Shown here: one piece after another, positions 17-51,964 of the stretch | How the letters are laid out: the number at the start of each line of letters is the position of its first letter | Position numbering within the stretch: the stretch's first letter is position 1 | Virus record (IMG/VR): IMGVR_UViG_3300036715_000254 | Span: 1 to 54,601 of that record | Origin: a virus | Lineage: Duplodnaviria; Caudoviricetes | Length of the DNA: 54,601 nucleotides | Direction: 5' to 3' (one strand) | The notes under the pieces: model-generated | Told to the model about the DNA's origin: nothing | Seen by the model: only the letters and a program-made list of their open reading frames with translations | Databases searched by the model: none | Translations under genes and position numbers: made by a program

Positions 17-46
17 GTTCACTTTTATTCATTTCCATGTTATAAT
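17..46 (+). promoter_or_regulatory. Early-type sigma70-like promoter (TTCACT-N17-TATAAT, extended -10 TG)
   Basis: TTCACT 18-23, TGtTATAAT 38-46; same motif recurs at 4293, 11287, 51392, 51909. Confidence 0.85.
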
Positions 47-51
47 CACAC

Positions 52-225
52 ATGAACTTAGCAACATCACTAGCAGCCAAGCAAATCCAACGTATGCTCG
101 ACATGGGCTATATTGGATATTATGACGTTATTGAACGGGCAACCAACTTCTTGATGGGTCAAGGTTGGTCTGCAGAGTACAGTCAACAATGCGCAGAAAA
201 GGCATTTGATTTACTAACACCATGA
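52..225 (+). CDS. Small hypothetical protein (57 aa), probably leaderless
   Basis: Hand-translated MNLATSLAAKQIQRMLDMG...; ATG 5 nt after the -10 box; stop overlaps the next ATG. Confidence 0.6.
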   Translation: MNLATSLAAKQIQRMLDMGYIGYYDVIERATNFLMGQGWSAEYSQQCAEKAFDLLTP

Positions 226-4291: not shown

Positions 4292-4321
4292 GTTCACTTT
4301 TATTCCTTTCTGTGTTATAAT
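4292..4321 (+). promoter_or_regulatory. Early-type promoter
   Basis: TTCACT 4293-4298, 17 nt spacer, TATAAT 4316-4321. Confidence 0.85.
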
Positions 4322-7885: not shown

Positions 7886-8325
7886 CCAAACAACGTCGTT
7901 ATGATGAGCTATACATGGATATAGCATTGAGATTTGCAGCTATGTCTCATGCCGTTCGCAAAAAGGTTGGTTGCGTGATTGTCCTTGATAACAATATCCT
8001 TTCATTTGGATTCAACGGAATGCCTGCAGGCATGGACAACTGCTGTGAAAACGAAGTAGATGGTAAGCTAGTAACAAAGGGTGAAGTAAGTCACGCAGAA
8101 GAAAATGCTATCGCTAAACTAGCAAAGAGCAATACAAGTTCTGTTGGAGCGACTGCTTATGTTACACTAGAACCTTGTATGCACTGCGCTAAGTTGCTTT
8201 ATAATGCGGGAATTACCCGTGTTGTAATCAAAGAGCCATATTTGAGCCACGAAGGTACGATCTACCTAACTAAGCTACATGTTGATATGGTACAAATAAC
8301 ACACGATGAATATTTCAAGTTATGA
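7882..8325 (+). CDS. cd: dCMP deaminase
   Basis: HAEENA and PCMHC zinc motifs. Confidence 0.92.
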   Translation: MTKQRRYDELYMDIALRFAAMSHAVRKKVGCVIVLDNNILSFGFNGMPAGMDNCCENEVDGKLVTKGEVSHAEENAIAKLAKSNTSSVGATAYVTLEPCMHCAKLLYNAGITRVVIKEPYLSHEGTIYLTKLHVDMVQITHDEYFKL

Positions 8326-8753: not shown

Positions 8754-8780
8754 AAGGGCTATTTTTAGCCCTTTTTCTTT
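8754..8780 (+). terminator. Rho-independent terminator
   Basis: Stem AAGGGCTA/TAGCCCTT, loop TTTT, T-rich tail. Confidence 0.85.
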
Positions 8781-8793
8781 GACTAGACGATCC

Positions 8794-8801
8794 CTTAAAT
8801 A
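8794..8801 (+). promoter_or_regulatory. T4 late-like promoter (cTTAAATA)
   Basis: TAAATA core just after terminator, before FmdB-PhoH-endolysin. Confidence 0.6.
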
Positions 8802-8825
8802 CAAAAGTATTTGAAAGGATTTACT

Positions 8826-9104
8826 ATGCCGATATACTCTAGACACTGCGATGATTGTGACGAACTGTTTGAAGTGAACTGTCGCATAGCCGATAAAGAT
8901 TCCCCCAAGTCATGCCCATATTGTGGATCCCAATATGGAAGTTATCGTCCAACTTCCTGCGCAACGTCGATCCGATCGGATCGTTTTATGACAGCAAAGA
9001 AAGATGGAGGTTTTAACGAAGTCTTAGACAAAATTAAAGAACGCAATAAGAGATCTAACCTAGCTTCTGGGAGGAATATTACCAGCGATACAGCAATGGG
9101 TTAG
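8826..9104 (+). CDS. FmdB-family zinc-ribbon protein
   Basis: MPIYSRHCDDC...CPYCGS. Confidence 0.85.
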   Translation: MPIYSRHCDDCDELFEVNCRIADKDSPKSCPYCGSQYGSYRPTSCATSIRSDRFMTAKKDGGFNEVLDKIKERNKRSNLASGRNITSDTAMG

Positions 9105-9133
9105 ACAAGGGTTTCAAACGATAAAGGAAAACA

Positions 9134-9952
9134 ATGGTAACAAAGAAAAAAGCTCCAGCACTCTTCGTAGCTGAGGCAATCCAAAATGGTGCTGAAACGA
9201 AATATAGTGGTGCTCAAAAGCGTATAGACCAAGTAGAAAGCGATAACCACAAAAATTATCACCAGCCAGTTAGTAACGGCCTCAAGATTAAGTTAGACCA
9301 TTTAAAGACATTTGACGCGCTGACGCCAAACCAACAAATCTTCTATGACATGTACAATCGTGGTGATTACTGTATGGGAGTATTAGGTTCCGCAGGTACT
9401 GGAAAAACGTTTATTTCCCTGTACAAAGCATTGGAAGAAGTTCTGGATAAGTCGAATCCATTCCGCCAAATGGTTGTTGTTCGCTCTTGCGTCCCAACTC
9501 GTAACGTTGGATTCTTGCCAGGTTCGTTGGAGGAGAAGCAAGAGATTTACGAACTCCCATATAAGGAAATTGCTGCTACATTGTTTGACCGTTCGGATGC
9601 TTGGGACCGTTTAAAAGAGCAAAACTATGCTCGATTCATTAGTACAACCGCTATTCGTGGTATCTCGATTGACGATTCAATTGTTGTAGTTGATGAGTTA
9701 CAAAACATGACGATGCAAGAGCTAGACACGATTATCACCCGTGTTGGTTACCGTTCCAAGATTATCTTTGTTGGTGACATAAAGCAGACAGATTTAGTAA
9801 CGTCTAAATACGATGTATCAGGATTGCCACAGTTCATTAAGATTTTGAACAACATGAATGATTACAGTGAAATTGAATTTACGAGTGACGATATTGTGAG
9901 AAGCAGTTTGGTCCGCAACTATATTATTGCCAAAGAGTGTATGGGGTATTAA
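9134..9952 (+). CDS. phoH: PhoH-family ATPase
   Basis: GSAGTGKT, GFLPG, RGISI, DELQN, GDIKQTD, DIVRS. Confidence 0.95.
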   Translation: MVTKKKAPALFVAEAIQNGAETKYSGAQKRIDQVESDNHKNYHQPVSNGLKIKLDHLKTFDALTPNQQIFYDMYNRGDYCMGVLGSAGTGKTFISLYKALEEVLDKSNPFRQMVVVRSCVPTRNVGFLPGSLEEKQEIYELPYKEIAATLFDRSDAWDRLKEQNYARFISTTAIRGISIDDSIVVVDELQNMTMQELDTIITRVGYRSKIIFVGDIKQTDLVTSKYDVSGLPQFIKILNNMNDYSEIEFTSDDIVRSSLVRNYIIAKECMGY

Positions 9953-9953
9953 A

Positions 9954-10556
9954 ATGATCACTTTAGATCAATTTGTGGCGATTCTGCCACAGTGTAACGA
10001 GCCAGAAGAATGGTGTGAGATTATCGCTAGTGAACTTCCGGAATGGGGTTTCGAAACAAGAGAACAGGTAGCGGGATTTATCGCACAAACTGCTCATGAG
10101 TCGTCATCTTATAATATATTGGCTGAGAATTTGAATTATAGTGGTGACCGGCTTGCTGTTGTATTTCCGAAATATTTTAAGAACGTTGATGTTAAGCCAT
10201 ATCACCGAAATCCTCAAGCTATTGCTAATCGTGTTTATGCTAATCGCATGGGTAACGGCAATGCTGATTCTGGTGACGGTTATCGCTTTAGGGGACGCGG
10301 TGTACTTCAAGTCACAGGAAAAGCGAACTACATGCACTGTAGTCAAGAGCTCTTTGGGCAAGAAGAGGTTCTTCTAGACGACCCGGACTTGCTTCTACAT
10401 AAGCCAAATGCTTTAGGTAGTGCATTATGGTTCTGGAAAGCTAACAATCTATTGTCAGTAACTGACTTCATATTGTTGACTAAGAAGATCAATGGTGGTA
10501 CGATTGGACTAGAACATCGTCAGTCAATCTATAACAAAGCACTTTCTATTCTTTGA
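9954..10556 (+). CDS. Glycoside hydrolase family 19 endolysin
   Basis: AQTAHES, ENLNYS, RFRGRGVLQVTGKANY, INGG motifs. Confidence 0.9.
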   Translation: MITLDQFVAILPQCNEPEEWCEIIASELPEWGFETREQVAGFIAQTAHESSSYNILAENLNYSGDRLAVVFPKYFKNVDVKPYHRNPQAIANRVYANRMGNGNADSGDGYRFRGRGVLQVTGKANYMHCSQELFGQEEVLLDDPDLLLHKPNALGSALWFWKANNLLSVTDFILLTKKINGGTIGLEHRQSIYNKALSIL

Positions 10557-10568
10557 ACTCACAGAGTA

Positions 10569-10601
10569 ATTATAGCAAAACTTTCTCAGACTCCAAATAA
10601 T
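10569..10601 (-). promoter_or_regulatory. Antisense promoter pointing into the endolysin 3' end
   Basis: Minus strand ATTATTTGGA-N17-TATAAT with extended TG; same geometry at 41286-41319. Confidence 0.7.
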
Positions 10602-10607
10602 GTTATG

Positions 10608-10640
10608 TTATTTGGAGTTTTCCTTTGAGTGTGTTATATT
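10608..10640 (+). promoter_or_regulatory. TTATTTGGA-box promoter for the exonuclease
   Basis: TTATTTGGA 10608-10616, TGtTATATT 10632-10640; ATG at 10646. Confidence 0.65.
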
Positions 10641-10645
10641 ACAAT

Positions 10646-11296
10646 ATGGCTCAATTTGTTGTATATGATATTCCTGTCTGCGAACAGATAAACTCTGAAT
10701 CTGGGCGGCGCTACAAGACACCTAACGGTGACATCTACCCAAGCGTCACGACAGTCTTGTCCAGCATACCAATGCCGTTTATAGATAACTGGCGACGTAA
10801 AGTGGGCGAAGAGACAGCTAAGAAGATTAGCGATGCAGCCGCCAAACGAGGAAGTAAGATCCATGGTTGGTGTGAGCAATATCTCATGAAACAAGCGATA
10901 ACACATTCCCCATTTGAACACGAAGCAACGATGATGTTCAAGAACATGAAACCGGAGCTGGACAAGTTTGATGAGGTCCATGCACTGGAAACACGTCTAT
11001 GGAGCGACAAACTCCGGGTTGCTGGTACTGTGGACTGTATCGCTAAGATTGATGGCGTTTTCTACATAGTCGATTTTAAGACGTCAAGACAGCTCAAGAA
11101 CCGGGCTGATATCCCCTCTTATTTCATGCAATGTGCCGCTTATGCTGTTGCTTGGTACGAAAGAACGGGGATTGCTATAGCGAAAATGCGGGTAATAATT
11201 ACTACACAAGATTACGGTGTGCTAGTATTTGATGAGAACGTTAAGGATTGGGTTCCACAGTTTATTGAGCTACGGAAGAAGTTCGATTCACTTTAA
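10646..11296 (+). CDS. PD-(D/E)XK exonuclease (RecB/Cas4-like)
   Basis: YPSVTTVL, RGSKIH, AGTVDC, IVDFKTS, QCAAYA. Confidence 0.9.
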   Translation: MAQFVVYDIPVCEQINSESGRRYKTPNGDIYPSVTTVLSSIPMPFIDNWRRKVGEETAKKISDAAAKRGSKIHGWCEQYLMKQAITHSPFEHEATMMFKNMKPELDKFDEVHALETRLWSDKLRVAGTVDCIAKIDGVFYIVDFKTSRQLKNRADIPSYFMQCAAYAVAWYERTGIAIAKMRVIITTQDYGVLVFDENVKDWVPQFIELRKKFDSL

Positions 11297-11315
11297 TTCC
11301 TTTCTGTGTTATAAT
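11287..11315 (+). promoter_or_regulatory. Early-type promoter
   Basis: TTCACT 11287-11292, 17 nt spacer, TATAAT 11310-11315. Confidence 0.85.
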
Positions 11316-11342
11316 AATGACATGGGTAACACAGGAACACAT

Positions 11343-11579
11343 ATGGTACAAGTAGGCGATATAGTTAAGTGTTTGGATTTCCCAGGCAATCATGATCACT
11401 TTATGATTGGCGAAGTGTTGATCATCAACGAAGATGACTGCATGATGACTATAAAGACTATCGCTTGCTATCGCGACGGTGACTTTGTCTCCAAGTTCTC
11501 TCCAACGTTTACGACCGCTCTCCCTGGTCACAACATGTTTGATACCGCGGTTCCCAGCCGCGTCACATTTGCTTGTTAA
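11343..11579 (+). CDS. Early hypothetical protein (SH3-like)
   Basis: AGGA RBS before ATG 11343; alternative in-frame ATG 11322. Confidence 0.7.
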   Translation: MVQVGDIVKCLDFPGNHDHFMIGEVLIINEDDCMMTIKTIACYRDGDFVSKFSPTFTTALPGHNMFDTAVPSRVTFAC

Positions 11580-11588
11580 AGGAAAAAT

Positions 11589-11876
11589 ATGAAATCAGCA
11601 GTAGATATTCGTCAACAAATTGAACAACTCTCACTTGAGTTGCTGGAAGCCGAACGGCGTGAAAATGAAGACGGACAGCGCAACGCTCTCCGTCTCATCA
11701 CAGAAAAGATGGCTTTGGTAACTAAAGTCATTCAAGAAGTACAGGAGCTCTCATCCGATTATGGGCTGTCATTCTACTGGGAAGGTCCCGGCGGTTTGAG
11801 CGGAGATTTGTACAGCGGCGAATGGACTATGTCCGGCTCAACTGAAAACTGGCAATCTAGCAACCAATCATGTTAA
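11589..11876 (+). CDS. Small protein ending WQSSNQSC
   Basis: AAGGA RBS; C-terminus resembles that of the next gene. Confidence 0.75.
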   Translation: MKSAVDIRQQIEQLSLELLEAERRENEDGQRNALRLITEKMALVTKVIQEVQELSSDYGLSFYWEGPGGLSGDLYSGEWTMSGSTENWQSSNQSC

Positions 11877-11885
11877 GGAAAGAAA

Positions 11886-12104
11886 ATGGTAGCACAAAAG
11901 ACTCCGAAGAAGATTTTAGTTAAAGTAGAACGCACTCAACGCGATGCTTTGTCTAAAATCACATCAAATATGCGAGAGGTTTATCGCCTGTTGCGTGAAA
12001 ACAAAACACTGGCTAAATCGGTTGGTTTAGAATTCTGTCCAGATTACGAACTAGAAAACCTTGGTTTCGATATGGGTAGCTGGGACTCAAGCAACTGTTA
12101 TTGA
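11886..12104 (+). CDS. Small protein ending WDSSNCY
   Basis: AAGGA RBS; shares helical body and WxSSN..C tail with previous gene. Confidence 0.75.
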   Translation: MVAQKTPKKILVKVERTQRDALSKITSNMREVYRLLRENKTLAKSVGLEFCPDYELENLGFDMGSWDSSNCY

Positions 12105-13086: not shown

Positions 13087-13506
13087 ATGCAATCAGTAAT
13101 GCTAAATCCAGGCAAGTATTGGGTCGGAAGTCCTGATCTTGTCTTTAATAGCTTTAAGCCGAATGCGACATTCGCATACAAGTGTGGTGAGTACTCATTT
13201 ATTACATTCAAGTATGGCGAAAAGTACATTGCAGCAATCCCATTTGATGCTCTTGAGTATGGCGATAAAATGCCGGAACTGACATACTCTAATGTCATGA
13301 CATTCACGAATGAAGCTCACTTCTTCTCGGATGGTGTGAATGGCTGTATTAACGGAGTTGAGTTAGGTGTGCTCGGCGGAACTGGAAAATCTAGTTCAGA
13401 AGAACTGACTGAAGAAGTCCTATCTAACCTTCCACACATCACTGGTGGATCCAATCCTATTGACTTCCCGAAGAAAACGAAAGCGGCTAAGCCGCTCACG
13501 GTTTGA
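13087..13506 (+). CDS. Hypothetical protein
   Basis: AAGG RBS. Confidence 0.65.
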   Translation: MQSVMLNPGKYWVGSPDLVFNSFKPNATFAYKCGEYSFITFKYGEKYIAAIPFDALEYGDKMPELTYSNVMTFTNEAHFFSDGVNGCINGVELGVLGGTGKSSSEELTEEVLSNLPHITGGSNPIDFPKKTKAAKPLTV

Positions 13507-13934
13507 AGTGGATTATTGCAGTCATAGGACTGCTAATTCCACTTTCTATCTATAGTCAACCAGTTCCAGATTTTCCGTTTTCCTTGAAAGAGCTCCGATG
13601 TTTGGAGCTCAACATATATTATGAAGCTCGGGGAGAGAGCGATAGGGGTAAGATTGCAGTAGGTTTTGTAACACTTAATCGAGCAAAGAACCCTAATTTT
13701 CCTAAAACCATTTGTGATGTAGTTTACCAGAAGTATCAGTTTTCTTGGGTCCAGCAGTACCCAAAGCATGCTAATACTAAAGTTGATCCAAAGATAACTG
13801 AAATTGCTATAGACTTATTATCCAATAAATACCGCGACTTTACTCGCGGCGCATTGTTCTTTCATAACGCTGAAGTGGAGTCGTTCAACCGAACTGTGGT
13901 AGCACAAATCGGTTCACATACATTTTATCGTTAG
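13503..13934 (+). CDS. Cell-wall hydrolase, SleB/Hydrolase_2 family, with signal peptide
   Basis: CLELNIYYEARGE, VTLNR, ICDVVYQKYQFSW, IGSHTFY. Confidence 0.9.
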   Translation: MKWIIAVIGLLIPLSIYSQPVPDFPFSLKELRCLELNIYYEARGESDRGKIAVGFVTLNRAKNPNFPKTICDVVYQKYQFSWVQQYPKHANTKVDPKITEIAIDLLSNKYRDFTRGALFFHNAEVESFNRTVVAQIGSHTFYR

Positions 13935-13941
13935 GGACACT

Positions 13942-14529
13942 ATGGCACGTAAAAATAACTCTATTGAAGATGAGATTGAACAAGAAAAGTCGCCCGGTCT
14001 AAGTTTGCTATTTGGTGAGATTACAACCGAATTAGTTGCTGAAACTATTGCATGGATCCTTACTGAGAACCTATCCGAAAATCCTCCTGATCAGCTAACG
14101 CTATTGATTAACTCGCCTGGTGGTGATTTGTCAGCAGCATTTGCTCTGATTGAGATTATACAAGGTAGTCGTATTCCAGTCCGTACAGTCGGTCTGGGTG
14201 AGATTTGTTCAGCTGGATTGATTATTTTCATGAGCGGAACAAGGGGTCATCGTATCCTTACACCAACTTGCAGTGTAATGAGTCACCACTTTAGCACTGG
14301 AGTAAGCGGTAACTTCCATGAGATTTTAAACGTACAGAAGGAATTGAACTTTATGAATCGCCGTATCATCAACCAATATGTGCATTGCACCGGATTATCT
14401 GAAGATGAAGTAACATCGAAGCTAATCCCATCGCGAGATGTATTCTTGTCACCACAAGATGCCGTTGAGCTTGGTATTGCTGACGATATTCGGGGAGTTG
14501 GTGCACCACCAAACAAGCTAAAACAGTAA
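13942..14529 (+). CDS. clpP: ClpP-like serine protease
   Basis: LLINSPGG, ICSAG (catalytic Ser), MSHH, FLSPQDAVELGIAD. Confidence 0.88.
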   Translation: MARKNNSIEDEIEQEKSPGLSLLFGEITTELVAETIAWILTENLSENPPDQLTLLINSPGGDLSAAFALIEIIQGSRIPVRTVGLGEICSAGLIIFMSGTRGHRILTPTCSVMSHHFSTGVSGNFHEILNVQKELNFMNRRIINQYVHCTGLSEDEVTSKLIPSRDVFLSPQDAVELGIADDIRGVGAPPNKLKQ

Positions 14530-18257: not shown

Positions 18258-19060
18258 TGGCGGCATCCGAAGGCGTTGATCTAGAATGGTGTATCGTTGA
18301 CATGATTAATAGTAACACTAAGCAAAATAGAGTCTATTCTGCTAACATTAAAGCGCAAGCTGAAAAATGTGTCGATCACGTACGCAAATTTGCTGGTTCA
18401 CAAAAGATCCAAGCATGGCATTCTGATGATCCAAAAGGTCCTTTTGGTACAGTAAAAGGTGAACCCGAACCAAAGACTGATGTTATATTCAATATTGGTG
18501 GTAAAGTCTATTGTGCGAGCGTAAAAATGGCTGGTGCAGTACAGCTTGCGTCTGGCCAAGGCGCGAGTACGGCAAAACTTTTTCAAGCCGCTGCAAATGC
18601 ATTGCCAAATAAAACTGAAGGTAAAGTTGTTTCCAGCATCATCAAATCTTTAGAGACGATGCCAACTCGCATGTTGTCTAGTGCCAATTACGACAGAATT
18701 GCTAAAGAAGGTTCTGAGAAAACTATTCAAGAATTCATCAAGAATGGTAAGATCATTACAGACAAGAATTACGAATTGTGGGTACAGAACAATAAGCCAG
18801 CCTTAATGACATCGCTTCTGGATTATGTTGAAAATGATTTAGATTTCTTTGCTGCATTAATTGAAGAGTCAATGACTGGCGCAGAAACACTTAAAGCATA
18901 TAAGGGAGCTGCTGCAGACTCTATTATCAGCCCAAAAGGATTTCACGAAATTGACATTGGTTATGTTTACCAGATACTACCTAAAATTAAGATTGACATT
19001 CGCGGTAAGTCACGATCCGGTATAACTGGTGTTGCATTCAGAATAGACTTTACTCCATAA
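18257..19060 (+). CDS. Putative PD-(D/E)XK restriction-fold protein
   Basis: EGVDLE, EPKTDV...ASVKM pattern. Confidence 0.55.
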   Translation: MAASEGVDLEWCIVDMINSNTKQNRVYSANIKAQAEKCVDHVRKFAGSQKIQAWHSDDPKGPFGTVKGEPEPKTDVIFNIGGKVYCASVKMAGAVQLASGQGASTAKLFQAAANALPNKTEGKVVSSIIKSLETMPTRMLSSANYDRIAKEGSEKTIQEFIKNGKIITDKNYELWVQNNKPALMTSLLDYVENDLDFFAALIEESMTGAETLKAYKGAAADSIISPKGFHEIDIGYVYQILPKIKIDIRGKSRSGITGVAFRIDFTP

Positions 19061-19063
19061 ATA
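19056..19063 (+). promoter_or_regulatory. T4 late-like promoter (CATAAATA)
   Basis: 4 nt upstream of ATG 19068. Confidence 0.6.
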
Positions 19064-19067
19064 CATA

Positions 19068-20483
19068 ATGAAATTCACAGAATTTTGTAACCGTAACAAA
19101 AATGTAATGCAGTCATCGACTGCTAAACGCATCACTGACTCTATTGAAGTAACAGAGGAACGTGACGCATTTTACAATGGCAATCTGTTTAAGAAATTTG
19201 ACATGGTTGAGGAAAAGGGTATCCCATATCGTATCCTGGAACAGTGTAGCAATTACTATCAAGTAGTCGATGAATCAGGCAACTTGTTCCGTAAATTTCC
19301 AAAGCAATTAATCAAAACAGAATCTGTGTTTGTTAGGATTCCTGGATTTTTCCATGGCTACCGAGTTACAAGCGAAACAGGTATGAAACTGTTGGAATCT
19401 ATTGACCATGACAACTGTGACAATGTAGGAACTCTAAAACAACTTAAAGAAGCAGATAAAATGGAATCACAATTCAAGTCTAAGGACAAGCTAACAGTGG
19501 CAAAGATTATTGCTGATGCAATTGGCATTCCGCACGATTCAATCAGTGACCCATCTAACCTTGTTAATGCTGCTATCCGTAAGGCAAAGAAGGATCCGGC
19601 TTTAATGAAGAACAAGGCAATCCTCCAGAATATGCTCCAGATTGCTAAGGAAGTTGGTATCAAGTATAGCGATACAGCGTTTGATGTAAATGAATCTACG
19701 TTAAACGGTGGGAAAGTAACTCATGAGGTAACAGTTGACCATCATGGTAGTAATCAACAAGTACCTTTGTACACAAAAACATACAAAGTGTCAGCCAAAT
19801 CTGATGAAGACGCGTCTAATCAAATTAAAAAGTTAGTTGGCGGCAGAAATCACCGAGTAAAATCATTGCAACAAAAGGTAGCTGAATCTGAAGTTATCCG
19901 AAAGGGTGCTGACGGACGTACAATGATTAGTGCAGCATTGCTAATCGGTAAGGCGCGGGAGTTTGCTAAGAAGGATCACGATCCGAAGAAGCATGGAAAC
20001 AAGCTAATCGTTACCCCAGAACACAAAGCAATGGCGCGTAAGCACTTAATGGGTGAATCTTTTGAAGTTAATGAGTTAAACACCAACACTCTAAAAACAT
20101 ATTCAGCATTAGCAAAAAAACATGCTGTAAAATTGGCTGCTAGCGGTAGTAAAGCAAAAAATCCTGAAACCGCTAATGCAAAGTTAAACAAAGCAGGAAA
20201 GCGCCTTGATGGTGCAGCAAAAGCTGACAAAAAAGCATTTGGGAACGAATGGAAGAAACGTATTGGAATGTCTGAAGAGGTAGCATTTGATACTGCAACC
20301 AATACTAAACAAGAACGTCAAACCGGCGAAAAACCAATTATACTAAAAGACTTGCTGGCAAAGCTGCGAAAAGCTGGTCCGGATAACAGTGATTTGAATA
20401 ACGATGGTATTGATGATCACGTAGAAATGTTACAAAAGCGTTCCGCTAAGAAAATGCAAGTAGCAGGAGTTCAGGACGCATAA
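19068..20483 (+). CDS. Putative internal head protein (multi-module, Lys-rich)
   Basis: Modules separated by VNE/VAE/MGE/MSE sites typical of T4-like processed head proteins. Confidence 0.6.
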   Translation: MKFTEFCNRNKNVMQSSTAKRITDSIEVTEERDAFYNGNLFKKFDMVEEKGIPYRILEQCSNYYQVVDESGNLFRKFPKQLIKTESVFVRIPGFFHGYRVTSETGMKLLESIDHDNCDNVGTLKQLKEADKMESQFKSKDKLTVAKIIADAIGIPHDSISDPSNLVNAAIRKAKKDPALMKNKAILQNMLQIAKEVGIKYSDTAFDVNESTLNGGKVTHEVTVDHHGSNQQVPLYTKTYKVSAKSDEDASNQIKKLVGGRNHRVKSLQQKVAESEVIRKGADGRTMISAALLIGKAREFAKKDHDPKKHGNKLIVTPEHKAMARKHLMGESFEVNELNTNTLKTYSALAKKHAVKLAASGSKAKNPETANAKLNKAGKRLDGAAKADKKAFGNEWKKRIGMSEEVAFDTATNTKQERQTGEKPIILKDLLAKLRKAGPDNSDLNNDGIDDHVEMLQKRSAKKMQVAGVQDA

Positions 20484-23057: not shown

Positions 23058-23963
23058 ATGTACGTTCTCTATAACTCAACGACTAGCTGGACAATGAATC
23101 AGCTAACTTCTGACATAGCTTTATTAGCATCCGGTTCCCCATTATCAGCATTGTCGGCGTCATGTAATATTGGTACCAGTACAAGAACTGCGACTATTGC
23201 TCCGGGCTGGACATTGTTTGATAATAGCATTTCAGCACAAACTTTTGGTGGGCAGATTTTGTCATGTTTGGATCGCGATTCGCTTACCACCAAGTACCTA
23301 AATGTTTACGGAGTATCAGCTACTGGTTTGAACTTCCGTATGTATGAAACATGGACAGCGGGTACTGATACGGGTACAAACGTTAGCACTGTTGTTGTTG
23401 GTCCAACTTTCACATCCGGTACAGCATTTTCATTACATATCTTTGTGACGCCAGAATATATCATAGTTAGCAACACAACTACCACATCTCTATGTTGTCT
23501 AGAAATTCTGCGTGATACACCGTTCCTCACTTCTACTGCAACACAAAATACTGTTGGTGTAGTTTGTACTGGCGCTAACTTGGGAACTGGTGTGAACAGC
23601 ACATTATTCAATACTCGCATAACACACCCAACCACTGCGGCTGCAATTGTTGGAACCGCAGCTAATATGCGACCAATGACAATTGGTCCAACATCGGATG
23701 CAGCCGCAGGACGTAAAAATCCAATCACAACTCAATGCATCGGAACTAATTCCATTGGTTTTCACCCAACGTATCCAATTTTTGCTGGTTACTCAGTAAC
23801 TGATCCAGCAACATATTATTATGGACGGATTGCGGATAACGGTGGTGACTTTGTAATGACAACCACTGGAACGATTACATCAGCATTGACTGGTGATACC
23901 ATGGTAGTCAACGGTGTAAACTACTGGTATTCTACTAGCGGATTTGTAGTGCCAATCAAATGA
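23058..23963 (+). CDS. Thr-rich structural protein
   Basis: Composition and position in fibre cluster. Confidence 0.65.
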   Translation: MYVLYNSTTSWTMNQLTSDIALLASGSPLSALSASCNIGTSTRTATIAPGWTLFDNSISAQTFGGQILSCLDRDSLTTKYLNVYGVSATGLNFRMYETWTAGTDTGTNVSTVVVGPTFTSGTAFSLHIFVTPEYIIVSNTTTTSLCCLEILRDTPFLTSTATQNTVGVVCTGANLGTGVNSTLFNTRITHPTTAAAIVGTAANMRPMTIGPTSDAAAGRKNPITTQCIGTNSIGFHPTYPIFAGYSVTDPATYYYGRIADNGGDFVMTTTGTITSALTGDTMVVNGVNYWYSTSGFVVPIK

Positions 23964-24109
23964 CAATCTCAGTAGCTGGCTATAAAGCCATTGTAAATAC
24001 CGCAGATATTACCAAAGAAGGTAATGTACCAGTAATCCCAACAGCACACGTACTACCAATCAGTGGACTTCCATGTCTACCAGTAACAAGCAATCAAGGC
24101 TGGTCGTGA
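23960..24109 (+). CDS. Small hypothetical protein (49 aa)
   Basis: Hand-translated MTISVAGYKAIV...QGWS; ATGA overlap. Confidence 0.55.
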   Translation: MTISVAGYKAIVNTADITKEGNVPVIPTAHVLPISGLPCLPVTSNQGWS

Positions 24110-24117
24110 CATAAATA
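24110..24117 (+). promoter_or_regulatory. T4 late-like promoter (CATAAATA)
   Basis: 4 nt upstream of ATG 24122. Confidence 0.6.
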
Positions 24118-24121
24118 CTGA

Positions 24122-26176
24122 ATGATCTACGGCGGCTCAATTCTTGGTGGAACAGTTCTAGCAGGTGCTTCACCAGATGCCGCATCAGTTACAAACACGA
24201 ACGTAGCAATCACTGGCAACGAATTAGCCAGCGCAATCGGAACTTTAACCACAAGTTCAACACAATCTCAAATATTAGCAGGAACACAATCAGTAATCAG
24301 TACTGGTGTAGAAGTTCCATCTCAAGCACTTTCCCAACCAATCTATAGTGCTGTTAGTAATGGTGTAATTGGGGCTATTGTAGCAATTACCAGCTATAAT
24401 CAAGCGATAACCGGCACTATCGTAGCAGTTAGTCCTGGTAGTCTAGTTAACTTTTCCGCCGTTACTATTGGACTAACATCTGCTGCAATATCCACAGCTA
24501 TTAATAGTGTTGGTAAAGATTTGTTGTTAGCACTAGTTGGTAATAGTTCAACTGTATCTATTGGCAGCCCAGCTAGCAGTGGCAATGTGAGTATCATGCT
24601 AAGTGGTAATTCTAGTGCTCTGACAGTTAATTCAGTGAATAACAGTGTCGCAGTTAGCGTGGCGATATCCAATGTTGTGGTGACTGTGTCACCTGGTACT
24701 GCCATACCAGCCGGTACGGTATCAGTCGCATTGACTGGAAACAGTTCTGCATTAACAGTGAATTTGCTAATTAACAGTGCTATTGTTAACGTGCAAATTC
24801 CAAGTTATGTAATCACAACTGCACTTGGATCTGTAGCAACTGCTGGTTCAGCAACATTTGCAATAACAGGTAATACAGTAACCTCAGCAGTTAATGGTCT
24901 CGCGCTATCTAGTGTTAAAACATTTGCGATTAGCGGTAATAGCAGTGCAAGCACAATCAACTTAGTTACAAATACCACTCAATACAGTAAGGCTATTACT
25001 GGAAATAGTTCTGCGACTGCGATCAATTCGCTAGCTGTAACAAGTATTGTATCACAATTGCTAAGTGGAACAAGCATTTCCGGAACTATTGGATCGGTTG
25101 GAAACGCATCATCCGTATCAATTGCGCTAGCTGGAAACGCAGCATTTGGTGTGGCTGGAAGTGTTAGCTTTGGTACTAACGTTTCTATAGGTCTTGTTAG
25201 TATAAGTGCTAACGGAAATGTCGGAAATGCCACAAATAGTATGACAGTTTCGTTACCAATCGCTGGTGTGTTGAGTACACTAAGCACCGGTGTAACAGTT
25301 GGCAGCGGTAACTTTAGTCGTTCAATATCCGGAGTTATATCTAATAGTGCAGTTGGTATAATCGGATTTACATCTAATTTAACCCGCGCATTAAATTCAA
25401 CAAGCATATTTATTATTGCGGGTAACGTAGGAACTGCTGGTAACTCGACTATCACCATCACTGGTGTGTCGAATATATTTGACATTGGAACCCTTGATGT
25501 TCGTAGTGACAAGACTATCGCAATCAGTAGTGTTCAATCTAGTGCTGCCATCAACAGCGTAAGCAACTCAAGTAACATAGATATTGGTATTTCCGGTGGT
25601 TTCATTATATCAGTATTGTCTGACGAAATTTCTAGCACAAATTATACCCGCTCAATTAACAGCGTAAACCTTGTCATATCCGTTGGAAATATTGATTTTG
25701 TAACTGATAAGTTTACTTCCATTAGTGGAAATGCTACTGATACGTTTACAAATTCGTTAACTAAAAATACCACCCAGACGCAAGCCTTAATAGGCGTTGC
25801 TACTACTGTGGAACATGGGAACTTAACTGTACAAGATCCAAACGTGACAATCGGATTGACTGGACGTTTTGCTACAATGTGGCAAGGTTATTATGGTGGA
25901 ATAGGTGTCGTTGATGTTCCAAATTCACTATATCCAACATCGGAAGATAAACCAGCACATGTAACAACTCCAGATGCTAACAAGATTGTCGCAAGTGGAA
26001 CCGATAAGCCAACAAGTGCGACACCAAACACAACCACTAAATATAGTGTCAGCGGCTCTAATTCGCCAAGAACTACGGTTACATCTGCTCCAAACAACCG
26101 AGCAAATATTAGCAATAGTCGGGTAAAAATTACAGTAACAACTGATGACATTAAGAAACTCGAACTAATCGACTAA
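24122..26176 (+). CDS. Long fibre/shaft protein with ~22-aa Ser/Gly/Thr repeats
   Basis: Repeating (I/L)(T/S)GNSS...(I/V)NS(V/L) units; few charged residues. Confidence 0.75.
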   Translation: MIYGGSILGGTVLAGASPDAASVTNTNVAITGNELASAIGTLTTSSTQSQILAGTQSVISTGVEVPSQALSQPIYSAVSNGVIGAIVAITSYNQAITGTIVAVSPGSLVNFSAVTIGLTSAAISTAINSVGKDLLLALVGNSSTVSIGSPASSGNVSIMLSGNSSALTVNSVNNSVAVSVAISNVVVTVSPGTAIPAGTVSVALTGNSSALTVNLLINSAIVNVQIPSYVITTALGSVATAGSATFAITGNTVTSAVNGLALSSVKTFAISGNSSASTINLVTNTTQYSKAITGNSSATAINSLAVTSIVSQLLSGTSISGTIGSVGNASSVSIALAGNAAFGVAGSVSFGTNVSIGLVSISANGNVGNATNSMTVSLPIAGVLSTLSTGVTVGSGNFSRSISGVISNSAVGIIGFTSNLTRALNSTSIFIIAGNVGTAGNSTITITGVSNIFDIGTLDVRSDKTIAISSVQSSAAINSVSNSSNIDIGISGGFIISVLSDEISSTNYTRSINSVNLVISVGNIDFVTDKFTSISGNATDTFTNSLTKNTTQTQALIGVATTVEHGNLTVQDPNVTIGLTGRFATMWQGYYGGIGVVDVPNSLYPTSEDKPAHVTTPDANKIVASGTDKPTSATPNTTTKYSVSGSNSPRTTVTSAPNNRANISNSRVKITVTTDDIKKLELID

Positions 26177-35719: not shown

Positions 35720-36343
35720 ATGTTTGATCACAAGAATTTAGCAACAGGAGGATTATATCCAGGTCAAGTAACTCATCGTTCCATTGCTAATCTTGGTACA
35801 TTTGAGTTTGATGTTTCTATTACCGAAATTCCAATTAATGGAAATATCAGTAGTTTTGTACCAGGAAACGTTGCGAGTAGTTCTCTTCTAAGTCGTTTAA
35901 TTACTGGTCTATTTGGATCCGGATCTACTGGAAGTATTACTGGTTCCAGTGCCACATCTAGTAATGTTAGCGGTAATCAGACTACTGGTGAAGTTGGTAG
36001 TGTTAGTTACAGCGGAACTGGAAATGTAACACTTCCAATTTCGAGTAACTTAGTACGCGGGTTCGTGGGAACCACTGTAGCTTACGGTGGGGATTTAATT
36101 GAAATCCAAGGTGGTGGTGGCGGATACGGGTTTAACTTCGGATCCGATAGTTATAAATATAAAGTAAAAATACGGATTACCCGTAAAGGTAAGACGTGGG
36201 AATATGAGACAATAGTCGGGCAAACTACCGCAAAAGTGCTTGCCAAAGTAATTAAGAAAAGAGTAGAAGCACCGACTGTTTCATTAGTTAATACATCGAT
36301 GGTTGAGAGCGTAGAACCAATTATTAAGGTCACGAAAAGATGA
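35720..36343 (+). CDS. Hypothetical structural protein
   Basis: Gly/Ser-rich centre resembling the 24122 repeats. Confidence 0.6.
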   Translation: MFDHKNLATGGLYPGQVTHRSIANLGTFEFDVSITEIPINGNISSFVPGNVASSSLLSRLITGLFGSGSTGSITGSSATSSNVSGNQTTGEVGSVSYSGTGNVTLPISSNLVRGFVGTTVAYGGDLIEIQGGGGGYGFNFGSDSYKYKVKIRITRKGKTWEYETIVGQTTAKVLAKVIKKRVEAPTVSLVNTSMVESVEPIIKVTKR

Positions 36344-39888: not shown

Positions 39889-40634
39889 GAATAGTCGACA
39901 ACATTATTGCGCTTCGTATCCTATGGTTGCTAATTACACCATTTGAGAAGACTGACGCATTCAAGTTAGGACTAATTGATGATCAAGGAACGTTTCTCCG
40001 TAAAGCAAAAACCCCCGCTGAGGTAAACTCGTCCTCAATGTTGCACCGTTTAGTGTGGCGCATTAAGAAGTTTATCAACATGGTTCCGGGCGGCTCAACT
40101 AAAATTGGTTCGCTTGTTGCAGCTTACGCTCTGGTACGTGAGTGTATAGAACGTGATACTTATCTTCCCGAAACAGAACAGTTAAACGAATCCTATATGG
40201 CAACTCCAGTTGAACCTTTCGATATGGATTTGATTAAACATTTCTTTGCTATCATGGAAGATGGTGTCCCGACTAATGTGACTGGAAACGCAGTCGCTAC
40301 AGATACACCAAAGATTAAAGCACGTCGCGCAAAAGGTACGTTTACAGTTAAGCGTGAAACATTTGACAAGTTTAAAAGCGGAAAAGCAAAGTTTCGTCGT
40401 TGGGGTCATTATCTTAACCTAGATGATGACGTGGACCGCGAAGTGTATCACTACGCTAAAAAGAATCCACGCGGTATCCTTGTATTACAAGACGAAGAGG
40501 GTCGAACAAAAGGCGTTCGATACTCTAAACACGGTGGTGGAAACTGGCACGGTATCAAGCGTAAACCAAAGCAGGTTGTTGAGTCATATCTTAATGATTT
40601 AGATACTGAAATGGAAGTGATTGACTTGTGCTAA
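39885..40634 (+). CDS. Conserved-type T4-like hypothetical protein
   Basis: TPFEKTDAFKLGLID..G; HRLVWRIKK. Confidence 0.7.
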   Translation: MRIVDNIIALRILWLLITPFEKTDAFKLGLIDDQGTFLRKAKTPAEVNSSSMLHRLVWRIKKFINMVPGGSTKIGSLVAAYALVRECIERDTYLPETEQLNESYMATPVEPFDMDLIKHFFAIMEDGVPTNVTGNAVATDTPKIKARRAKGTFTVKRETFDKFKSGKAKFRRWGHYLNLDDDVDREVYHYAKKNPRGILVLQDEEGRTKGVRYSKHGGGNWHGIKRKPKQVVESYLNDLDTEMEVIDLC

Positions 40635-41260
40635 ATATATTCAGCTGGTTTACTAACGAACTTATCTACTCGCTAATCGTTCCTGGAATTGGGATTGGAG
40701 TAGTTCTATTGCTAATAGCGGAATTTGTTCCGGATTGGCTAAAACAATATCGTATTCAAGCACAGCTCCTTGGTTTAATAATCTGTATCTTTTTCACATT
40801 CCAATCTGGGCGTGAACATGAGTTTGACAATCAAAAATTAGTACTCGCAGAACAAAAAGCCCTAGTAGAACAATACAAAACAAAATCGGGCGAAGTTACG
40901 ATTGAAGTCCAGACTAAGTATGTGGACAAAATTAAATATGTTGAACGAATTAAAGAGGTACCAGTAAATGTTTATGTTACTAAAGAAGCTGATTCTAAGT
41001 GCGTCATTGATCCTGTCACTTCTGATGGTATCCGGTTGCTGCTCGACAGTTCCATTGCAGGGCAACTTCCCAAAGCCTCCACCGGAACTAATGAAGGTTC
41101 CACCAATGCTGAAACCACTACCGGTATCCAACTAAAGCTATCAACTATTGTAGCATCTGCTAAAGAAAACTATGCTACATCGTATCAAATACGTGAACAG
41201 TTAATCAGTTTACAAGAGTGGATAACAAAGCAAGACAAACTGTACAACAGTACCAAATAG
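40628..41260 (+). CDS. Rz-like inner-membrane spanin
   Basis: N-terminal TM segments, coiled coil, TKYVDK...VYV...ADSKC, C-terminal NY...EQL..LQEW pattern of Rz-like lysis proteins. Confidence 0.7.
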   Translation: MLNIFSWFTNELIYSLIVPGIGIGVVLLLIAEFVPDWLKQYRIQAQLLGLIICIFFTFQSGREHEFDNQKLVLAEQKALVEQYKTKSGEVTIEVQTKYVDKIKYVERIKEVPVNVYVTKEADSKCVIDPVTSDGIRLLLDSSIAGQLPKASTGTNEGSTNAETTTGIQLKLSTIVASAKENYATSYQIREQLISLQEWITKQDKLYNSTK

Positions 41261-41285
41261 TCTATTGCTGAGATCCTACAGAGGA

Positions 41286-41319
41286 ATTATAGCAAATATT
41301 TTCATGTATCCAAAATAAT
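41286..41319 (-). promoter_or_regulatory. Antisense promoter pointing into the spanin 3' end
   Basis: Minus strand ATTATTTTGGA-N17-TATAAT with extended TG. Confidence 0.7.
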
Positions 41320-41327
41320 GTTCTAGA

Positions 41328-41359
41328 TTATTTTGGATAGTGATTTGTTTGTTTATAAT
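41328..41359 (+). promoter_or_regulatory. TTATTTTGGA-box promoter for primase
   Basis: TTATTTTGGA 41328-41337, TATAAT 41354-41359; ATG 41366. Confidence 0.7.
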
Positions 41360-41365
41360 GGGAAC

Positions 41366-42373
41366 ATGATAGACATGTTCAAACTAACCTCGTATGCAAA
41401 TCGCGTAGGAGTATATCTTAAAAACTTCAAGCAAAAGAAAGCACGACTCTGGGAATTTAGCCATTCTTGCGAGGTTCAGCACGGCTTCAAATCTCTCAAG
41501 AAACGTGGCTATATTTACCAAACCACGGATGGAAAATCACTGAATGTTAAGTGTCAACACTGTGGTTACAGTAAAAGTCTGCCTAATTTCATACGAGAAA
41601 TTTCCCCCTCTTTATATGATGAGTTTCGGCTAGAAGCGTACCGAGACACGGATCCAGTTCGTGAGATTGTAAAAGAAGAGCAGATTCCAATTCCGGATGT
41701 AAACTTGGATGGATTAATTCCAGTAATTAGTTTGCCGCCGAGCTCACCCGTGTTAAAATTCCTGGAGAGACGATGTATCCCGAAGGAACATTATGATAAG
41801 CTGTATGTTGCGAAGCAATTTTATGATTGGGCAACGCAATACAAGCCGGAGTTTAAGGATTCGAAAGACAAAAGCCCAAGACTAGTAATTCCATACTTTC
41901 ATGACAATCGCGTCATTGGCTTTACATGTCGAACGTTTAACCCAAGCGTTGAACCTCGATATATACACTTACGGATAGACAAGAGAGTAGAATTTATATA
42001 TGGCACGGATCGAATCAATACTAACAAGAAAATCTATGTTGTTGAGGGAAATATTGATAGTCTTTTTCTTGATAATGCAATTGCTATTGGTGGGGCTCAT
42101 TATCATTTGGGATACCTCCAACAACACAAAAATAATTGCGTTATCATTCCTGATAGCGACTGGCGTCGCAATAAACAAGTGGGTGAGCAGCTACGTAAAG
42201 CAATTGAGTCTGGCTATCACGTCGCTTTCATGCCAGCTAGACTACGAGGCAAAGACATTAACGACTGGGTTAAAAACGGACTCACTAAATATCAACTCCA
42301 GCAAATAATCCAAGAAAACACAAAGCGAGGGCTAACAGCAAAGCTCGAGTTTTCTATTCTTAAAAAATACTAA
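41366..42373 (+). CDS. gp61: DNA primase (T4 gp61-like)
   Basis: CQHCG zinc motif, RLVIPY, YVVEG.IDSLF TOPRIM, KDIND. Confidence 0.92.
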   Translation: MIDMFKLTSYANRVGVYLKNFKQKKARLWEFSHSCEVQHGFKSLKKRGYIYQTTDGKSLNVKCQHCGYSKSLPNFIREISPSLYDEFRLEAYRDTDPVREIVKEEQIPIPDVNLDGLIPVISLPPSSPVLKFLERRCIPKEHYDKLYVAKQFYDWATQYKPEFKDSKDKSPRLVIPYFHDNRVIGFTCRTFNPSVEPRYIHLRIDKRVEFIYGTDRINTNKKIYVVEGNIDSLFLDNAIAIGGAHYHLGYLQQHKNNCVIIPDSDWRRNKQVGEQLRKAIESGYHVAFMPARLRGKDINDWVKNGLTKYQLQQIIQENTKRGLTAKLEFSILKKY

Positions 42374-51390: not shown

Positions 51391-51420
51391 GTTCACTTTT
51401 AATCGTTATTGTGTTAGACT
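51391..51420 (+). promoter_or_regulatory. Early-type promoter (variant -10 TAGACT)
   Basis: TTCACT 51392-51397, 17 nt spacer, TGtTAGACT. Confidence 0.7.
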
Positions 51421-51444: not shown

Positions 51445-51918
51445 ATGTATTACCTCAAACCCTACATTCTTGGTGAAGTCGCCGACGTTAAATTCTCATT
51501 GAGCGATGCCTGGGATATTTTTGAGCAGCTAGGTATTCTTGATCGCGGAGAAATTGGTGAGAAAGCAGTTGTCAACAAAATGAATGCTAAAAAAGCAAAG
51601 ACGGGTCAAAAAGGTTGGGATCTCACTAAGAGAAATAAATTATTTGAAGTTAAAACATTGACAATCGGCACTGTAATGAATAACGGTTATCCGCGACGCC
51701 GTTGCAATGCAATAGTTACTCATAAAATTGGGACATTGTTGGTTATGGCTGAATGCAACAAATCCGGTAATGTAACCTACATACGCATTCCTTATTCCGC
51801 TTATAAAGGAATGCGTGGACTGACGTTTGATTTTGATGGATCCGGAAAGATGAAAACTACCAGCCGTTGGTATCCTTTTCAAGTAGGATCTTTTGAAGAA
51901 CTGTGTGGTTCACTTTAA
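51445..51918 (+). CDS. Putative PD-(D/E)XK endonuclease
   Basis: GEIGE...QKGWDL...FEVKT. Confidence 0.65.
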   Translation: MYYLKPYILGEVADVKFSLSDAWDIFEQLGILDRGEIGEKAVVNKMNAKKAKTGQKGWDLTKRNKLFEVKTLTIGTVMNNGYPRRRCNAIVTHKIGTLLVMAECNKSGNVTYIRIPYSAYKGMRGLTFDFDGSGKMKTTSRWYPFQVGSFEELCGSL

Positions 51919-51937
51919 TTCGTTTCTGTGTTATAAT
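51908..51937 (+). promoter_or_regulatory. Early-type promoter
   Basis: TTCACT 51909-51914, 17 nt spacer, TATAAT 51932-51937. Confidence 0.85.
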
Positions 51938-51964
51938 AATCACATGGACAACAAAGGAAACAAA

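Follow-up and report, generated by a model that had tools for sequence, protein, structure and literature searches.

The stretch of DNA analyzed here, a 54.6-kb fragment (54,601 nucleotides; IMG/VR record IMGVR_UViG_3300036715_000254), will be called the window; the virus record to which it belongs is estimated to be about 30% complete. The element under study is a cassette (W1, 10560-10648) located at the junction between the genes encoding a GH19 endolysin and a PD-(D/E)XK exonuclease (Table 1). The stop codon of the endolysin gene (TGA, 10554-10556) is followed by ACTC and then by a box, CACAGAGTAATTATAGCAAA, which reads TGCTATAAT-TACT-CTGTG on the minus strand. An inverted repeat lies 12 nt beyond this box, with the arms ACTCCAAATAA (10590-10600) and TTATTTGGAGT (10608-10618) and a 7-nt loop, and is followed by TTTTCCTTT, by the plus-strand extended -10 element TGTTATATT, and 5 nt later by the ATG codon of the exonuclease gene. 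The predicted antisense start (about 10562) was placed from the -10 distance alone. These features had been pointed out in an earlier note on this DNA, and the inverted repeat after the endolysin stop codon, the -10 elements on the two strands, the exonuclease ATG and the family assignments of both proteins (phrog_181 for the endolysin and phrog_298 for the exonuclease) were all confirmed in the sequence; the layout given there was also correct, although the spacings of 17 and 18 nt are off by one if they are measured from the -35-like TTGGAG to the -10 elements, these distances being 16 and 17 nt.

The same layout recurs, as previously claimed, after a spanin gene (W2, 41277-41368). The window contains just two copies of the 19-mer ACAGAGNAATTATAGCAAA, which includes one free position; they start at 10561 and 41278 and are both on the plus strand, versus 0.13 copies expected by shuffling, and two or more copies were present in 0 of 100 shuffled sequences. 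The gene preceding W2 was rightly called a spanin: it has the two helices and the embedded lipoprotein ORF (open reading frame) of a two-component spanin, and phrog_4952 was the sole family model matched. Three exact matches with the 19-mer were found in viral contigs, all of them within coding sequences and without any hairpin, and were attributed to chance. A box-like CAGGAGGATTATA (minus strand: TATAATCCTCCTG) is also present at 35745-35757, 25 nt inside the gene starting at 35720; it lacks both a hairpin and a TTATTT element 20-21 nt away, and probably arose by chance.

Table 1. Features of the two cassettes, of their surroundings and of related sites; positions are those of the window unless G001 is mentioned.
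Feature	Position	Strand	Remarks
GC-rich terminator-like hairpin	8754-8773	+	terminator scan; -12.0 kcal/mol, z -3.5; closes the preceding unit
TTAAATA, late-type motif before the Zn-ribbon/PhoH/endolysin unit	8795-8801	+	CTAAATA at this place in G001
CTAAATA in the 3' part of PhoH	9804-9810	+	123 nt before the endolysin ORF; same place in G001 (159607-159613)
GH19 endolysin ORF	9927-10556	+	PF00182, 4.7e-08; phrog_181, 2.9e-65; last gene of its unit
CACAG (minus: CTGTG)	10560-10564	-	4 nt past the minus -10; holds the predicted antisense start
Antisense extended -10, TGCTATAAT (minus strand)	10569-10577	-	TATAAT in 7/7 cassettes
W1 hairpin, 14-pair stem, 5-nt loop, then TTTTCCTTT	10588-10620	+	-15.2 kcal/mol, z -5.35; 0/200 shuffles as good
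Antisense upstream element AAATAA (minus: TTATTT)	10595-10600	-	20 nt from its own -10
Sense upstream element TTATTT	10608-10613	+	21 nt from its own -10
Sense extended -10, TGTTATATT	10632-10640	+	read from the sequence
PD-(D/E)XK exonuclease	10646-11296	+	phrog_298, 3.6e-66; ATG 5 nt past the -10
i-spanin-like gene	40628-41260	+	two N-terminal hydrophobic helices; phrog_4952; ends a long structural/late block
Embedded o-spanin-like ORF, +1 frame	40968-41135	+	lipoprotein signal LMVSGC; proline-rich mature part
W2 box: TACAG, then ATTATA + GCA (TGCTATAAT-N4-CTGTA on minus)	41277-41294	-	
W2 hairpin, 13 pairs	41307-41339	+	AAATAA 41313-41318; TTATTT 41328-41333
W2 sense -10, TATAAT	41354-41359	+	
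gp61-like DNA primase	41366-42373	+	phrog_47, 3.7e-52; ATG 6 nt past the -10, predicted leaderless
-10/ATG pairs with leaderless geometry, window	41-54, 11310-11324, 51932-51946		
-10/ATG pairs with leaderless geometry, G001 (examples)	29770, 30014, 34234, 37329, 40548, 123554, 125072, 144895, 152220, 161273		
ATAAATA-N4-ATG sites, window	19057-19070, 24111-24124		
ATAAATA-N4-ATG sites, G001	7648, 48060, 93659, 120799, 133697		

All the ORFs of at least 45 amino acids kept in the tiling of the window are on the plus strand. Their products show 32-43% identity with proteins of T4-like myoviruses of marine and freshwater bacteria, the named relatives being Methylophilales phage Melnitz, cyanomyoviruses, Pelagibacter phage HTVC008M, and Stenotrophomonas phage DLP_6; judging from this distant kinship, the window is part of a distant T4-like phage. 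No DNA match with the window was obtained among GenBank phages in near mode, and the distant mode gave only short PhoH and chitinase matches. Among the complete genomes of the collections, the nearest relative (G001, 164,769 b) shows synteny with the window, amino acid identities ranging from 30 to 91% (83% in the case of the endolysin), and encodes UvsY-, UvsW-, gp55-, and gp47-like proteins in the T4 order; its ORFs of at least 45 amino acids are distributed between the two strands in the proportion of 226 plus to 34 minus. Three cassettes were identified in G001, all intergenic and in the plus orientation: they are located at the endolysin/exonuclease junction (G11, the counterpart of W1), at the spanin/primase junction, and at a third junction, where the genes for a UvsW-type helicase and a small protein are followed by that for a gp55-like late sigma factor. 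A gapped pattern scan of the viral collection showed that the third-junction cassette is also present in G005 (locus L167) and G006 (locus L170), two fragments which do not span the exonuclease or primase junctions; locus L171 is a polymorphic copy of the G001 endolysin-site cassette. The scan of the metagenomes yielded at least 116 stretches, of which 80 loci were kept; the one genuine cassette among them was L220, which belongs to the 62,077-b record that also gave L163, and all the others were unrelated AT-rich matches. The set of distinct full cassettes therefore numbers seven: W1 and W2 in the window, G11, G12, and G13 in G001, X167 in G005, and X170 in G006.

The order of the elements is the same in all seven cassettes: yACAG, 4 nt, ATTATA, 20-21 nt, AAATAA, 5-9 nt, TTATTT, 20-21 nt, and the plus-strand TAnnnT, the position of yACAG being invariant. 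The distance between each half-site and its own -10 is kept (20, 21, 21, 21, 21, 21, and 21 nt on the left; 21, 20, 20, 20, 20, 20, and 20 nt on the right), whereas that between the AAATAA and TTATTT half-sites floats (5, 7, 7, 8, 8, 9, and 9 nt), and the two -10 hexamers are 58-62 bp apart. The back-to-back promoter pair proposed in the earlier note is thus a conserved architecture, with TATAAT as the minus -10 in all seven cases at a fixed distance from its own element. The plus -10s are more diverse (TATATT, TATAAT, TATTAT, TATAAT, TACTAT, TACCAT, and TAAAAT), and this is the variation of ordinary -10 elements, not that expected from the upkeep of pairing with the box. The inverted repeat itself reads as two facing upstream elements. 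The single regulator put forward in the earlier note could be a dimeric phage protein that uses the repeat as its operator and switches on both promoters together, and this would be in line with the position of the repeat, centered about 30-32 nt upstream of each -10 hexamer (class II-like), with the presence of perfectly complementary arms in W1, W2, and G11 despite sequence changes, and with the fact that a Zn-ribbon protein of a "transcriptional regulator" family (phrog_385) is encoded at 8811-9104. Since the variable gap between the half-sites would not be tolerated by a rigid dimer, and since each half is tied to its own -10, consists of the TTATTT element of ordinary sense promoters, 12 of which stand alone in G001, and shows weak complementarity past the hexamers in 4 of the 7 cassettes, a dedicated regulator of this kind is improbable and is not needed, and the earlier claim is not supported. 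A simpler reading would be that TTATTT is a shared UP-like A/T element touched by the polymerase itself.

The TTATTT-N20/21-(-10) pattern, in which at least 5/6 matches with the -10 hexamer were required, occurs 15 times on the plus strand of G001 versus 0.9 times expected per strand (Markov model; maximum 3 in 40 simulations) and 5 times on that of the window versus 0.2 expected. Among the 15 plus-strand matches in G001, 11 lie between genes or at gene edges, and the 12 solo TTATTT promoters have no inverted partner. On the minus strand, the pattern was found 3 times in G001 and twice in the window, and all these matches are the cassettes. By these counts, TTATTT-N20/21-(-10) is the ordinary sense promoter type of the clade; since the minus-strand matches all correspond to cassettes, the in-silico data argue well for the minus-strand element being a true member of the promoter class of this phage, and the antisense promoter is therefore credible. 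A search of sequencing runs with positions 9000-12000 listed no RNA data set carrying this region. In G006, a solo left half, consisting of the box and AAATAA at 21 nt without any right half, precedes a UvsY-like gene, which indicates that the antisense arm can stand alone. The box was also considered as a possible late promoter of the phage, and this was rejected because no plus-strand (gene-sense) matches were found in the window and G001. Another type of promoter was observed at five places in the window (18-46, 4293-4321, 11287-11315, 51392-51420, and 51909-51937) in the form of near-identical 30-nt sequences, (G)TTCACTTTwATTCsTTTCTGTGTTATAAT, two of which also have a downstream leader in common; G001 has TTTAC where these promoters have TTCAC, and resembles the T4 early -35 in this respect.

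The earlier statement that no credible minus-strand gene is available still holds good: the ORFs following the predicted antisense start amount to just 6-18 codons and are not conserved. The possibility that the antisense RNA might carry a leaderless micro-ORF was rejected, since a GTG is present 6 nt past the minus -10 in 4 of the 7 cassettes and GTA elsewhere. The peptides which the antisense leaders could encode (6-18 amino acids) are unrelated from one cassette to another, except for G12 and G13. The antisense leaders of these two cassettes (G001, 24057-24075 and 97351-97369, minus reading) have in common a small hairpin located downstream of the predicted antisense start, which shows a compensatory change (GTTCC…GGAAC vs ATTCC…GGAAT) and a hammerhead-like CUGAUGA loop that is present only there among the cassettes. 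The same stretch could encode the similar peptides MVPDEWN and MIPDEYWN, and is absent from the window cassettes.

The strength of the central hairpin differs considerably between cassettes. That of W1 has the U-rich tail UUUUCCUUU, and its G001 counterpart (-18.7 kcal/mol) also has a U-rich tail and shows compensatory changes in the arms; these two hairpins look like terminators. In L171, two changes retain G-U pairs in the plus-strand RNA hairpin. The W2 hairpin (-13.1 kcal/mol, z -4.54) is followed by AGTGATTTGTTT, a poor U-tract, and those of G12, G13, X167, and X170 are weak (-3.5 to -8.2 kcal/mol) and have no U-tract. The W1 hairpin was not listed in the terminator scan. In W1, the repeat very probably has a second role as an intrinsic terminator ending the endolysin unit, but since only 3 of the 7 hairpins are strong (-13 to -18 kcal/mol), termination cannot be what conserves the cassette. 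This bears on the possibility that these elements might be terminators of the PeSL kind combined with a single sense promoter, the minus-strand TATAAT box being a non-promoter sequence (a 3' untranslated region or processing element, a protein site, or a sequence copied along). PeSLs are known from the T4-type phages RB49/phi1, T4/PST, and KVP40/nt-1, where an early promoter with an AT-rich upstream sequence and a terminating stem-loop is spread by recombination (excerpts from PMC2839356 and PMC4122927). The terminator-like hairpins of W1 and G11, the long identical stretches shared by the cassettes, and the conserved yACAG beside the box, which a promoter does not explain, are all compatible with such an origin. 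The G006 fragment adds a 65-nt direct repeat (L170, 5680-5745, at the solo half, and 8047-8112) which repeats the left flank of the full cassette, contains the box and a GTTAC-CGAA-GTAAC hairpin, and suggests that PeSL-like recombination has occurred between cassettes. A non-promoter box does not account, however, for the presence of TATAAT in all seven cassettes at 20-21 nt from TTATTT, i.e., for the two-part rule of the sense promoters, nor for a left half without any sense arm, nor for the four weak hairpins, and we consider this explanation unlikely.

Whole-region folds pair both -10 regions around the central stem, which raises the question as to whether a single long, imperfect hairpin in the RNA might run from the box to the sense -10 and be processed there by an enzyme of the RNase III type. 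Processing of this type takes place between units in T7 early mRNA. However, the spacers beyond the central stem (the outer 14 nt on both sides) pair no better than shuffled sequences in 6 of the 7 cassettes, the plus -10s keep TAnnnT instead of pairing with the invariant box, and no Rfam matches at gathering scores were obtained across the window; an RNase III site is thus extremely improbable. As the outer spacers pair no better than shuffles in all but one of the cassettes, the mirror symmetry is not a by-product of a long stem.

The placement of the cassettes was analyzed in the light of late-type motifs, TATAAATA or CTAAATA being the short A/T sequences expected on the coding strand a little way before late genes. 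In the T4-like phage Aeh1, CTAAATA has been put forward as the motif of late promoters (excerpts from PMC1524935), and the uvsW gene of T4 is expressed from a late promoter (excerpts from PMC3016281). CTAAATA shows a strong strand bias (13 plus and 0 minus in the window; 19 and 2 in G001) and often lies 22-41 nt upstream of gene starts. In both genomes, the Zn-ribbon/PhoH/endolysin unit opens with a terminator and then with (C)TTAAATA or CTAAATA, the terminator hairpin of the window being replaced by a different one in G001. The CTAAATA located inside PhoH, which is 123-150 nt ahead of the endolysin ORF across the window and G001, might act as a late promoter from which the endolysin is expressed inside the unit, or might simply reflect the 91% identity of the protein. 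In G001, a cassette marks the end of each of the three long runs of late-type motifs (106-21461, 41930-96819, and 158616-159607), with early-type promoters beginning beyond it, and both window cassettes likewise end runs of late-type motifs and are followed by early-type promoters. This arrangement suggests that early antisense transcription may proceed into late genes. The earlier note had described a lysis-specific switch, but at the third site (G001, G005, and G006) the cassette comes after the genes for a UvsW-type helicase and a small protein and ahead of a gp55-like gene, and the idea that it closes late-type units and opens early-type ones fits these data better; on this reading, the antisense arm would work against late genes at large. 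It is plausible that the genes under the antisense arm (those of the endolysin, the spanin, and the UvsW region) are all late ones whose early expression would do harm.

The architecture of the cassette, its conservation, the promoter-class membership of its arms, and its placement were established in silico, and the explanation we favor, with a probability of roughly 55%, is that it is a conserved boundary element formed by two back-to-back host-type promoters, the antisense arm of which would oppose late genes while the sense arm would be leaderless. The RNA production, timing and effect that we infer would be as follows. The two promoters would be of the sigma-70-like extended -10 kind, their facing TTATTT elements making up the inverted repeat, and both arms would be used by the host polymerase early in infection. 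The plus arm would start the next early or middle replication gene (here that of the exonuclease) as a leaderless mRNA, whereas transcription from the minus arm would run back past the stop codon and enter the late-type unit on that side (here Zn-ribbon/PhoH/endolysin), where it might oppose the read-through or premature expression of late genes through collision and RNA pairing. At a later stage, gp55-directed late sense transcription would cross the antisense promoter before stopping at the hairpin, thereby shutting the antisense arm. Going further, one might imagine a programmed "anti-late" system in which the early antisense promoters closing late blocks act as a self-resetting gate for lysis and for leaving origin-dependent replication; this extension is tentative, and we hold it to be possible rather than probable.

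Several points weigh against the boundary promoter pair. There is no canonical -35 on either arm, TTGGAG showing a 3/6 match with TTGACA at 16 nt from the minus -10, and neither of the W1 promoters was listed in a simple sigma-70 consensus scan, because the -35 match was under the cut-off. The TGn extension is present in 4 of the 7 minus arms (TGC in both window arms) versus 5 of the 7 plus arms. The yACAG sequence beside the minus -10 is unexplained by the promoter model, and could mark some other function of the box. No minus-strand terminator-like site was listed from 10560 to 5000, and the nearest below W2 is at about 40024, so that no discrete small antisense RNA is predicted and any such RNA would be heterogeneous. 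The early and late labels come from motifs alone, and isolated late-type motifs occur within the early region of G001 without any cassette after them. The seven cassettes come from only four lineages, and in view of the identity observed within genomes (the 19-mer and the 65-nt repeat), part of the conservation could be explained by copying rather than selection. Lastly, the expectation that the cassette would be conserved after the endolysin gene in related genomes was borne out in G001 but not in relatives at 43-49% identity, which have no cassette: in many of these, the endolysin stop codon abuts the exonuclease start, and other genes follow elsewhere. The arrangement is therefore not required for these genes generally.

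The location of the cassettes, which are few (3 per 165 kb), A/T-rich, and placed beside replication genes, one of them being close to uvsY/uvsW, is also reminiscent of replication origins of the T4 oriF/oriG kind, where an R-loop transcript from one arm would prime DNA synthesis. T4 origins are likewise about 100 bp in length and consist of a sigma-70-type -10 promoter and an A+T-rich unwinding element, the R-loops being removed by UvsW (excerpts from PMC3016281). The A/T-rich element of the cassettes lies upstream of both promoters, however, whereas that of T4 is downstream; the cumulative GC skew shows no turn at either window site, and nothing links the cassette to initiation, which makes an origin very improbable.

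As regards the sense arm of the promoter pair, the ATG codon is located 5-7 nt past the plus -10 in 5 of the 7 cassettes, the other two having an AAGGAG leader. The leaderless geometry claimed previously for the exonuclease is indeed present: ATG 10646 has no Shine-Dalgarno sequence, and many homologues of the enzyme align from residue 1 of this start, as do the gp61 homologues of P-RSM4 and S-TIM4 with that of the primase. Other genes of the window carry AAGGA or GGAG before their ATG. The exonuclease start is predicted to be leaderless; an alternative TTG start at 10625, preceded at a distance of 7 nt by a GGAG located in the hairpin arm, is possible on read-through RNA. In the window and G001 together, 30 -10-like hexamers are followed 5-7 nt on by an ATG opening an ORF of at least 45 amino acids, and about 19 of these 30 pairs carry TGn and/or an upstream element (TTATTT or the T4-early-like TTTAC/TTCAC). 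Leaderless starts look common in this clade, and to our knowledge, such a widespread leaderless geometry is unusual for a T4-like phage. In 7 of the 38 occurrences of the late-type ATAAATA, an ATG comes exactly 4 nt later, versus about 0.7 expected (a rough estimate based on base composition), which suggests that late mRNAs may be leaderless as well.

Comparisons with known systems give some idea of what might be new here. Phage cis-antisense RNAs directed against late or lysis-related functions include OOP and paQ of lambda and sar of P22. Functionally, these resemble the antisense arm in that a host-type promoter located downstream of a gene points back towards the 3' end or regulatory region of that gene and is proposed to reduce its expression through pairing or interference; but they are short RNAs with their own terminators, whereas no minus-strand terminator is predicted here and the antisense promoter belongs to a cassette that is repeated in a virulent T4-like genome and pairs it with a divergent sense promoter. 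The "anti-late" RNA of T4, a phrase which was absent from the papers listed in our literature search, consists of early transcripts complementary to late messages, most of the late genes being on the other strand. Early-phase transcription antisense to late genes is common to both cases; that of T4 is a by-product of gene orientation, whereas here dedicated promoters at the block ends would supply the antisense RNA. In the case of T4 gene e (lysozyme), a hairpin at the ribosome-binding site of the early sense transcript prevents the endolysin from being produced early. The outcome would be similar, the endolysin being kept unmade early even though its gene can be transcribed, but the T4 mechanism lies in the sense RNA and not in an antisense promoter. 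In bacterial bidirectional promoters of the type described by Warman and coworkers, the two starts are reportedly about 18 bp apart. These promoters result from -10 symmetry (Warman et al.; bioRxiv 10.1101/2020.01.31.928960; PMC12825309), and the excerpts consulted describe divergent transcription from a pseudo-symmetrical region, as in the cassettes, with key elements coinciding on opposite strands; here, the well-separated -10s have upstream elements of their own.

The PeSLs of T4-like genomes show the closest likeness in form, being repeated intergenic cassettes, roughly 100 bp in length, whose copies share sequence and seem to recombine, a point on which the 65-nt repeat of G006 bears comparison; they combine an early promoter of the host type with AT-rich sequence upstream of it and with a stem-loop able to end the transcription arriving from upstream. 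According to excerpts from PMC2839356, however, the PeSL stem-loop is mostly located in the space from the -35 to the -10 or over the -10, whereas here it is upstream of both promoters; PeSLs end in a Shine-Dalgarno sequence, whereas most of the present cassettes have the leaderless geometry; and PeSLs cluster in hyperplastic regions by ORFans, whereas the present cassettes occupy core-gene junctions at late-block ends. In addition, the stem here consists of two facing promoter elements and a putative antisense promoter is built in. The word "antisense" is absent from the main texts of PMC2839356 and PMC4122927, and "bidirectional" from that of PMC4122927, the one paper searched for it. What appears to be new relative to PeSLs is therefore the upstream stem made of two promoter elements, the antisense promoter, the leaderless starts, and the core-gene sites at block ends.

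Timed gene expression is classically illustrated by T4-type phages, and little is known about how genes are ordered in time in their marine and freshwater relatives lacking MotA and AsiA. If the boundary promoter pair operates as proposed, the combination of a terminator, a leaderless sense promoter and a mirror antisense promoter at late-block ends would constitute a simple, portable timing and insulation device, and would explain how a nearly one-stranded genome keeps its lysis and UvsW functions off early in infection. With the rule TTATTT-N20/21-TAnnnT and an ATG 5-7 nt past the -10, it should be possible to annotate the promoters of this uncultured clade along with its leaderless starts, and to choose 100-bp fragments for reporter tests.

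Two other observations concern the lysis genes. In G001 (23420-24056, corresponding to L095 3420-4056), the i-spanin frame ends at 23935, and the segment matching the C-terminus of the window i-spanin (…DIREQLKALQDWIKIQQSK) runs up to 24056 in the embedded o-spanin-like frame; this frameshift in comparison with the window may be genuine or may be due to an assembly error. The window also carries a second cell-wall hydrolase gene (13503-13934; PF07486 Hydrolase_2, 1.4e-24), which adjoins a prohead-protease-like gene (13942-14529), and the GH19 enzyme is therefore not the sole muralytic protein encoded in the window.

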